Shown piece by piece: positions 10,471-11,491 of a DNA stretch of 17,428 nucleotides; the stretch's first letter is position 1, and each line of letters starts with the position of its first letter. The position numbers and the translations under genes were made by a program. This DNA is from a virus. Its lineage: Duplodnaviria; Heunggongvirae; Uroviricota; Caudoviricetes. The notes under the pieces were generated by a model. The model was given only the letters and a program-made list of their open reading frames with translations, was not told the origin of the DNA and did not search any database. The stretch covers positions 1-17,428 of the IMG/VR virus record IMGVR_UViG_2657244986_000007; one strand, 5' to 3'.

Positions 10471-10794
10471 ATGGATGCACAAGCACGCCGCCGCGAACGT
10501 CGCGCAGAGAAACAGGCTCAATGGAAAGCAGCAAATCCCATGTTGGTTGGGGTAAGCGCAAAACCAGTTAACCGCCCTATTCTCTCGCTGAATCGCAAAC
10601 CGAAATCACGAGTAGAAAGCGCACTGAATCCGATAGACCTTACGGTGCTGGCTGAATACCACGAACAGATTGAAAGCAACCTGCAACGTATTGAGCGCAA
10701 GAATCAGCGCACATGGTACAGCAAGCCTGGCGAACGCGGCATAACATGCAGAGGACGCCAGAAAATTAAAGGTAAATCTATATCACTTATTTAG
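10471..10794 (+). CDS. N: Antiterminator N, 107 aa
   Basis: [64 protein letters not shown]... is recognised as lambda N (arginine-rich motif). AGGAGA Shine-Dalgarno upstream. The track start at 10381 is an extension. Confidence 0.92.
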
Positions 10795-11281
10795 AAAATG
10801 CAGATTTAGGGAACAGATAGGAGGCGTTACACCTATGGCATCTCATCCTATGGTTAGAAGGTGGTGCAAATCCTTCGTATTGAAGTATGGATTTCACAGA
10901 AGATTCATAGCATTGAGCGCAAAGATAGTGCATTGGCTGACCGGTATTTGCCGATTTTTTGAGACGATAAACCACCGTAGCAACAGTAGGTGTATACATC
11001 TCATAGTTTTTCTTTTCCTCTTCCCACTTAGAGGCTCGATTTATCTTTTCTTCAAGCTCAATAATCTTGTCCTTAGAAATCATCAAAAGCTCATTAAGTG
11101 ACATTTGCTGCTGTTGGGCATCCATGAGCTTATCGACAAGTTCGTATGTTTTTTCTTTTACTGAGTAGTCTATTTGCATTTTCTGGATTTCCTTTACTGC
11201 GCCAACAGCACTCATCAGAGCACCTCCGGCGCCAGAAACTGCATCTGTAATCCTACTTATTATTCCTTTTTCATCAGACAT
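10787..11281 (-). CDS. Convergently oriented protein of unknown function, 164 aa: Gly/Ala-rich N-terminus, central coiled-coil-like region, C-terminal 4-Cys zinc-ribbon-like motif
   Basis: [29 protein letters not shown]...[27 protein letters not shown]...[10 protein letters not shown]...RMRCHRCN. Start taken at the first ATG (the track's 11290 start is GTG). Not recognised as any lambda gene. Confidence 0.65.
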
Positions 11282-11297
11282 ATAAATCACTCTCTTA

Positions 11298-11342
11298 CTG
11301 TAGGGGTAAGAGGATTTTACTATTTTTCTCGCTGTAGGGGTA
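11298..11342. repeat. Two copies of an 11-bp direct repeat, CTGTAGGGGTA, 34 bp apart, upstream of the convergent gene
   Basis: Copies at 11298-11308 and 11332-11342, seen directly in the sequence. Confidence 0.7.
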
Positions 11343-11401
11343 CACGAGAACCACCGAGCCTGATGTGGTTAAAAGACAGGCATACTAATAAACACTGCAC
11401 T

Positions 11402-11429
11402 GTGTATTCATTCCAACGAGTGAATACAC
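11402..11429. repeat. Perfect 9-bp inverted repeat, GTGTATTCA-N10-TGAATACAC
   Basis: Seen directly in the sequence. No U-tract on either strand, so it looks operator-like or RNA-structural rather than a terminator. Confidence 0.6.
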
Positions 11430-11491
11430 GGAGCAATGTCGCTCGTAACTAAACAGGAGCCGACTTGTTCTGATTATTGGAAATCTTCTTT

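Follow-up and report, generated by a model that had tools for sequence, protein, structure and literature searches.

Genes and open reading frames around the convergent gene

The window, by which we mean the whole stretch of 17,428 nucleotides that was analyzed, carries the early region of a lambdoid prophage, and its plus strand runs in the pL (leftward) direction. The genes that define the locus are the following.

9133-9765: cI, in the early region of the window
10471-10794, plus strand: N antiterminator gene (Pfam N36, E 9.5e-25; 84% DNA identity to lambda N)
10787-11281, minus strand: rip1 coding sequence, 164 amino acids plus stop (open reading frame call, match to PDB 9oox, PHROG 1244)
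11533-11781, plus strand: gene for an acidic anti-restriction protein of 82 amino acids (PHROG 14587, "anti-restriction protein"), located where lambda has Ea10 and ral
11814-11999, plus-strand pL region: cIII (Pfam cIII)

N and the minus-strand gene, designated rip1 here on the evidence of the next section, converge with overlapping stop codons, such that their frames share 8 nt (10787 to 10794). The minus-strand open reading frame extends from 10787 to 11290, giving 167 amino acids from a GTG codon or 164 from the ATG at 11281. The ATG is supported as the start by the N-terminal MSDEKG that homologs keep and by the 164 residues of the solved PDB chain, and a GAGAG Shine-Dalgarno sequence lies 8 nt ahead of it. 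The GC content of rip1 (36 to 43%) is below that of N (50 to 53%), as expected of a moron. The ral gene is absent from the window but is present upstream of an identical rip1 in other prophages, for example, L004, L010, L017, and L020.

The protein has a small-residue-rich, amphipathic helix at the N terminus, a long helix, and a C-terminal beta domain of the zinc-ribbon type with four cysteines. Across 143 family members, C121, C124, and C151 are invariant and C148 is at least 90% conserved. An AlphaFold2 (AF2) model places helices at residues 2 to 34 and 39 to 90, followed by the beta-rich C-terminal domain. Residues 7 to 30 form the most hydrophobic part of the protein, yet they fall below the transmembrane threshold (KD19 1.28, muH 0.42). 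The original prediction had described a 164-amino-acid frame on the strand opposite N, lying between N and cIII and overlapping the N stop by 8 nt, and had given its product a Gly/Ala-rich N-terminal helix, a coiled coil, and a CxxC...CxxC motif; the coordinates, the Pfam assignment of cIII, and the protein sequence bear out each of these statements.

A further open reading frame of 134 amino acids overlaps the cI stop codon on the plus strand (9762 to 10166), in the position of lambda rexAB. Its product has a signal-peptide-like N terminus, belongs to PHROG 2651 (unknown function), gave no Pfam match, and is similar to the product of Sf6 gene 38. It is a candidate for a second moron expressed in the lysogen.

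Identity of the gene as rip1 and its likely action

A single solved structure, PDB 9oox, "ring interacting pore 1 (Rip1)," with 12 chains, was matched by a profile built from 143 family members (E 1.2e-52). The entry, released on 2026-02-04, is entitled [quoted passage not shown] Compared directly with the 9oox Rip1 sequence, the window protein gave a phmmer E value of 1.4e-105 and 161 identical residues among the 162 aligned, the sole substitution being a tyrosine at position 96 where the solved HK446 protein has histidine (Y96H). The structural comparison led to the same entry. AF2 gave a pLDDT of 87.4 when run on the 143-sequence alignment and 72.9 when run on 24 close homologs, and Foldseek superposed the model on chain 9oox_M with a TM score of 0.94 and an rmsd of 1.3 Å over 126 residues, so that the long helix and the beta-rich zinc-ribbon domain of Rip1 are both reproduced. 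No PDB entry other than 9oox passed an E value of 0.001 in the fold search.

HK446 carries this protein, Y96H apart, at the same position, between N and the anti-restriction and cIII genes. Across rip1, the DNA of the window and that of HK446 agree at 99.5% of positions; the HK446 gene there is gp37, annotated as a "hypothetical protein," and the DNA flanking rip1 is 97.8 to 99.5% identical. Other parts of the window are 94% identical to HK446 or have no match in it, making the window prophage a mosaic relative of HK446 rather than HK446 itself.

We conclude that the gene is very probably an allele of rip1, that is, a single-protein prophage defense gene that has a sieB-type promoter and serves as an alternative cassette to sieB. 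The gene has already been described and its product solved structurally, so the identification is not a new discovery; the defense protein is already known from the published work. An exclusion or abortive-infection moron had been guessed at this position, rightly so given the roughly 99% identity to HK446 Rip1. Among the checks that had been proposed for that guess, two had different outcomes: the structure comparison by AlphaFold and Foldseek gave the superposition above, whereas PADLOC-DB v2 (2023), which predates Rip1, gave no significant match, the best being PDC-M53B at E 0.019. Scans against Pfam and NCBIfam likewise found nothing significant for the window protein, a Pfam scan extended to the 143 family members yielded zinc-ribbon and coiled-coil matches that were scattered and all below threshold, and PHROG 1244, which does match (E 4e-53), is labeled "unknown function." Since rip1 has no Pfam, NCBIfam, or PADLOC model and is still called a "hypothetical protein" in phage and RefSeq records, its identification here has practical value for annotation.

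Rip1 comes from the study of Patel, McCarthy, Taylor et al. (Nature 651:1060, 2026, doi 10.1038/s41586-025-10075-1). A review (PMC13434031) describes Rip1 as a prophage protein that is not toxic alone. By the same account, escape mutations affect the portal in Pseudomonas phages and the small terminase in E. coli phages. Twelve Rip1 subunits surround an 11-mer ring of small terminase, on which a conference report agrees, with the C-terminal half touching the ring and the N-terminal part forming an amphipathic helix. The complex is described there as a pore that releases dye from liposomes, makes holes in cells, and lyses the infected cell prematurely. The introduction of a Nature Communications paper (PMC13601566) names Rip1 as a small-terminase sensor.

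The sequence features of the window protein are consistent with this mechanism, and on the AF2 model helix 2-34 would be the N-terminal amphipathic helix capable of membrane insertion that is expected of a Rip1. In the window prophage, rip1 would be transcribed from the sieB-type promoter on the strand opposite pL; since this transcription would not depend on pL, the lysogen would make Rip1 constitutively. The one protein would act as both sensor and effector. As the late ring-forming proteins of a superinfecting phage build up (the small terminase in E. coli phages, the portal in Pseudomonas phages), the C-terminal half of Rip1 would bind round the ring, with 12 Rip1 subunits per T6 small terminase 11-mer, and the N-terminal amphipathic helices would then create an inner-membrane pore. 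Permeabilization or lysis of the infected cell would come ahead of completed phage assembly, the outcome being abortive infection. After induction of the resident prophage, N-antiterminated transcription from pL would cross rip1 and its promoter in the antisense direction and could lower new synthesis of Rip1. RAZR, the ring-activated zinc-finger RNase (Zhang et al., Nature 2026, PMC13017515), is likewise a zinc-finger defense protein that assembles on large phage rings such as portals; however, its effector is an RNase and it forms a 24-mer, whereas the effector of Rip1 is a pore.

Relatives of Rip1 are widespread in Proteobacteria, mostly in prophages, according to the same review (PMC13434031). 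In our full HMMER profile search, 2964 representatives were matched at E ≤ 1e-3, most of them 150 to 170 amino acids long and matched over their full length, and a word-indexed protein search returned 29 clusters, all from Enterobacterales and without names. The family shares the pattern W..EK.RYEL...G.FVY.LK....EP.H.LC..CY....KSILQ......C..C. Among complete E. coli genomes, 97 of 5426 carry rip1 at 99% identity or more, on the chromosome every time, and the listed records call it a "hypothetical protein." Inspection of 74 viral contigs and five genomes revealed many homologs, down to about 40% identity, that lie between cI or N and cIII on the opposite strand, most of them with the promoter module nearly unchanged. 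All 74 of the viral-contig loci listed are on phage or prophage contigs, and the window gene is itself prophage-encoded, in a lambdoid early region with cI, N, and cIII.

Other sites are also occupied. The founding member, from a Pseudomonas aeruginosa prophage, belongs to the same family as the window protein and has the family architecture of about 150 to 170 amino acids, an N-terminal helix, a coiled coil, and an HxLCxxCYxxxKSILQ...CxxC zinc ribbon. The review (PMC13434031) places it between the genes for the small and the large terminase and gives portal proteins as its trigger, whereas rip1 of the window occupies the sieB slot in the early-left operon of a lambdoid prophage. In two Mu-like prophages (L063 and L070) a family member is encoded on the opposite strand, with a Mu gp27/DUF1804-type gene on one side and a gene for 513 to 550 amino acids on the other, the latter without a Pfam match and followed by a Mu-type portal gene; this location agrees with the review's account of the Pseudomonas founder. 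Other distant family members adjoin repressor-like genes. Two loci have unusual arrangements. In viral contig L028 (2595 to 4339) rip1 is split, with residues ~1 to 56 encoded at 2595 to 2762 and residues 52 to 164 at 4001 to 4339, about 1.2 kb apart, which suggests inactivation by an insertion, possibly of an IS element. In L080 (4001 to 5477), from Candidatus Phlomobacter fragariae, two tandem Rip1-like matches at 4001 to 4379 and 4998 to 5477, about 500 bp apart, may represent a duplicated or paired Rip1.

The sieB slot and its promoter

SieB is a prophage-expressed abortive-infection exclusion protein that acts against superinfecting phages. In lambda, sieB (34482 to 35036) is convergent with N and abuts its stop codon. 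BLASTN aligned positions 10295 to 10794 of the window with lambda N up to the stop codon, and positions 11297 to 11382 with the 86 bp directly 5' of the lambda sieB ATG (87% identity). The placement of lambda sieB and these BLASTN blocks together show that the rip1 open reading frame and most of its leader replace sieB exactly. The replaced stretch begins at the N stop codon and reaches 10 nt beyond the sieB-type transcription start; there is also a deletion of ral and orf28. The gene was originally held to have no lambda counterpart; that is true of its sequence (best BLASTP E value against lambda SieB, 9.4) and false of its position, because rip1 converges on N, lies behind the sieB promoter, and so occupies the sieB slot. 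The control region and the DNA beyond it contain these features.

11282-11307, minus strand: putative 5' untranslated region of 26 nt, starting at the A of ACCCCUACAG and placed via the P22 "sieB RNA start site"
11298-11308, minus strand: proximal direct repeat, ACCCCTACAG on the gene strand, its first base being the putative +1 at 11307
11314-11319, minus strand: putative -10 hexamer TAAAAT, which aligns with TAAACT, the 3' end of the annotated P22 sieB promoter
11332-11342, minus strand: distal direct repeat, TACCCCTACAG, overlapping the -35 region of the sieB-type promoter
11351-11381, either strand: conserved element just upstream of the promoter, 5' of both rip1 and sieB cassettes
11387-11517, plus strand: lambda-derived segment, 97.7% identical to lambda 33925-34055 (downstream of ral), context outside the rip1 module
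11490-11519, plus strand: intrinsic terminator, in the lambda-like segment downstream of ral

In a region homologous to that of the window, the P22 RefSeq record annotates a "sieB promoter," TGTACCCCTACAGCGAGAAATCGGATAAACT, and marks the A of the second ACCCCTACAG as a "sieB RNA start site." From this alignment we infer that the rip1 promoter is the conserved sieB promoter, with the +1 and the -10 carried over from the P22 annotation. No structure is predicted for the rip1 leader (z = +0.69), the -35 region, TACCCC, matches sigma-70 poorly, and a generic promoter consensus scan of the window did not pick the sieB-type promoter. The original prediction had given rip1 a promoter of its own and dedicated regulation. 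A minus-strand lysogen promoter antisense to pL is indeed predicted here, but it would be the sieB promoter annotated in P22 rather than one specific to rip1, and the claim of dedicated regulation fell, the control region being the sieB promoter module that also lies 5' of lambda and P22 sieB.

The two repeat copies 34 bp apart that had been noted at the outset are present, as an exact 11-mer, CTGTAGGGGTA, at 11298 to 11308 and 11332 to 11342 (34 bp start to start), and the match extends to 16 nt at 88% identity. With one mismatch allowed, ACCCCTACAG occurs three times in the window against 0.42 expected, and stronger evidence for the direct repeat than such chance counts comes from its conservation. 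In an alignment of distinct promoter sequences, ACCCCTA.A did not vary in any of the 38. Both repeats are included in the block shared with lambda, and by alignment to P22 the proximal repeat makes up the first ten transcribed bases. On these comparisons, the direct repeats are core parts of the sieB promoter.

They might, on another view, be more than passive components of a constitutive promoter and act as operators through which a dedicated regulator turns the cassette on or off. Among the 38 distinct promoter sequences the decamer hardly changes, in contrast to the bases on either side of it; its copies lie at -35 and +1, positions at which a bound protein would govern RNA polymerase; and a weak sigma-70 -35 region is typical of activator-dependent promoters. 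However, ACCCCTACAG has no known or linked candidate regulator, the promoter precedes cassettes that are unrelated to each other (SieB or Rip1) with no extra gene accompanying the module, and the invariance could also be explained by the needs of the promoter and initial transcript or by a recombination boundary between mosaic modules. We therefore regard operators as possible but lean against them and treat the repeats as core promoter parts. No described function was found for the ACCCCTACAG repeat or for the helices upstream of the promoter, which are treated in the last section.

What the promoter drives was surveyed by scanning viral contigs with the promoter motif and typing the first downstream open reading frame in at least 114 loci. 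Among the 114 loci listed, at least 86 have a SieB-type gene behind the motif, at least 24 a Rip1-family gene, and 4 another or an untyped gene, these last being two singletons and two of no assigned type. The SieB-type genes comprise at least 55 of P22 type, at least 23 of lambda type, and at least 8 for another SieB-like membrane protein, and the Rip1-family genes comprise at least 19 for Rip1 and at least 5 for divergent family members (hhalign probability 99.7%), all counted among the same 114 loci. In all-versus-all clustering of the slot proteins, SieB and Rip1 fell into separate groups. This distribution points to rip1 and sieB as alternative cassettes of lambdoid phages that probably share one socket and one conserved promoter.

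A broader reading, which we offer tentatively and consider rather unlikely, is that the sieB-type promoter module of about 95 bp, with ACCCCTACAG at -35 and +1 and the overlapping helices next to it, forms a conserved socket of a regulatory kind into which different abortive-infection cassettes (SieB, Rip1, and rare others) can be exchanged, its conserved parts controlling the timing of expression. By analogy with P22, whose sieB has an internal esc product and a sas antisense RNA that give self-immunity, a cassette in such a socket might be shut off when the resident prophage is induced. Lambda and P22 sieB share slot, orientation, and promoter module with rip1, whereas no counterpart of esc and sas, as a conserved internal start or an antisense promoter, was found in rip1. 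An Esc-like internal start at M36, preceded by AAGGA, was dropped after leucine was found to replace M36 in the group at 45% identity, and a plus-strand consensus scan gave no sas-like antisense promoter within the 5' end of rip1. The points that are modestly new here, namely, Rip1 and SieB as alternative cargo, the near-invariant decamer at -35 and +1, and a possibly structured element beside the promoter, provide handles on how prophage defense genes are regulated and how a resident phage avoids killing itself on induction.

The minus strand beyond rip1 also deserves comment. The nutL boxB hairpin of the window, GCCCTGAAGAAGGGC (10346 to 10360), is terminator-like when read on the minus strand and is followed by TAAATTTTTA. 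Because rip1 overlaps the N stop codon, its transcript may cover the whole of N in the antisense direction and stop at the boxB complement, giving an RNA of about 970 nt. One could thus suppose that the locus serves mainly for antisense control of N, the RNA being what matters and the rip1 open reading frame being incidental, as the overlap leaves no room for a terminator between the genes and the first minus-strand site of that kind lies beyond N, at 10360 to 10346. This is very improbable, since the Rip1 protein is strongly conserved, has thousands of relatives, and is a demonstrated defense protein with a solved complex, and since the family members of Mu-like prophages adjoin terminase genes with no N gene nearby. 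Least credible of all is that rip1 encodes a divergent SieB-type membrane exclusion protein: position, orientation, and promoter do match those of lambda and P22 sieB, but Rip1 and SieB are unrelated in sequence by BLASTP and differ in PHROG family, no segment of Rip1 reaches transmembrane hydrophobicity or is predicted to span the membrane whereas the lambda SieB sequence has long hydrophobic stretches, and the window protein is nearly identical to Rip1, whose solved fold is unrelated to SieB, so that at the level of homology a SieB identity is refuted by the sequence comparisons.

Sequence elements beside the promoter

The conserved element at 11351 to 11381 contains two potential helices, one pairing GCCTG (11381 to 11377) with CAGGC (11362 to 11358) and the other CCAC (11368 to 11365) with GTGG (11354 to 11351). 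The 3' arm of the first lies within the loop of the second, so that the helices overlap and, judged from the sequence, can form a pseudoknot or alternative hairpins. Across the 38 distinct sequences, 84% of cells were paired, compared with 31 to 41% when the partners were slid, and seven pairs had two-sided changes, for example, GCCGGG/CCCGGC, AATCCTC/GAGGATT, and TCACG/CGTGA, compared with 2.4 in shuffles. Few independent compensatory events underlie these figures: about one or two in the first helix and three or more in the second. Folding energies favored neither strand. The element lies upstream of the mapped start and would consequently be transcribed only in pL-direction RNA or by read-through from upstream. 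No Rfam family matched at the gathering threshold anywhere in the window, matches around the control region being at chance level.

A DnaA box was considered for this element and rejected. In L087, L140, L160, L169, and L027, the second helix has TTATCCACA as its 5' arm, which matches the DnaA-box consensus perfectly, whereas the window (11372 to 11364) and lambda read TTAACCACA, and other loci replace the box and keep the pairing. What is conserved is, on this comparison, the putative structure and not a DnaA box. A separate hairpin at the distal repeat, UGUA-CCCC-UACA with an outer stem, was set aside as unsupported, since its inner pairs never vary and its outer pairs are often absent.

Farther upstream, perfect 9-bp arms, GTGTATTCA at 11402 to 11410 and TGAATACAC at 11421 to 11429, lie within an imperfect palindrome of 22 nt. 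The original prediction had reported these arms, which do exist, and had counted them as part of the rip1 control region, which they are not: they fall within the lambda DNA from downstream of ral. The inverted repeat is missing at the same position from near-identical rip1 loci that keep ral and also from most of the divergent rip1 loci inspected, which places it outside the rip1 control region. The same ral-less junction also precedes P22-type sieB.

Just past the rip1 start, on the plus strand at 11291 to 11313, the proximal repeat and the cassette-specific leader together form a hairpin, CTCTTAC/GTAAGAG, followed by ATTTTACTATTTTT, which looks like a terminator for transcription in the pL direction. 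The tL1 region of lambda presumably lies within sieB, and with sieB replaced in the window, this hairpin might serve as its substitute.
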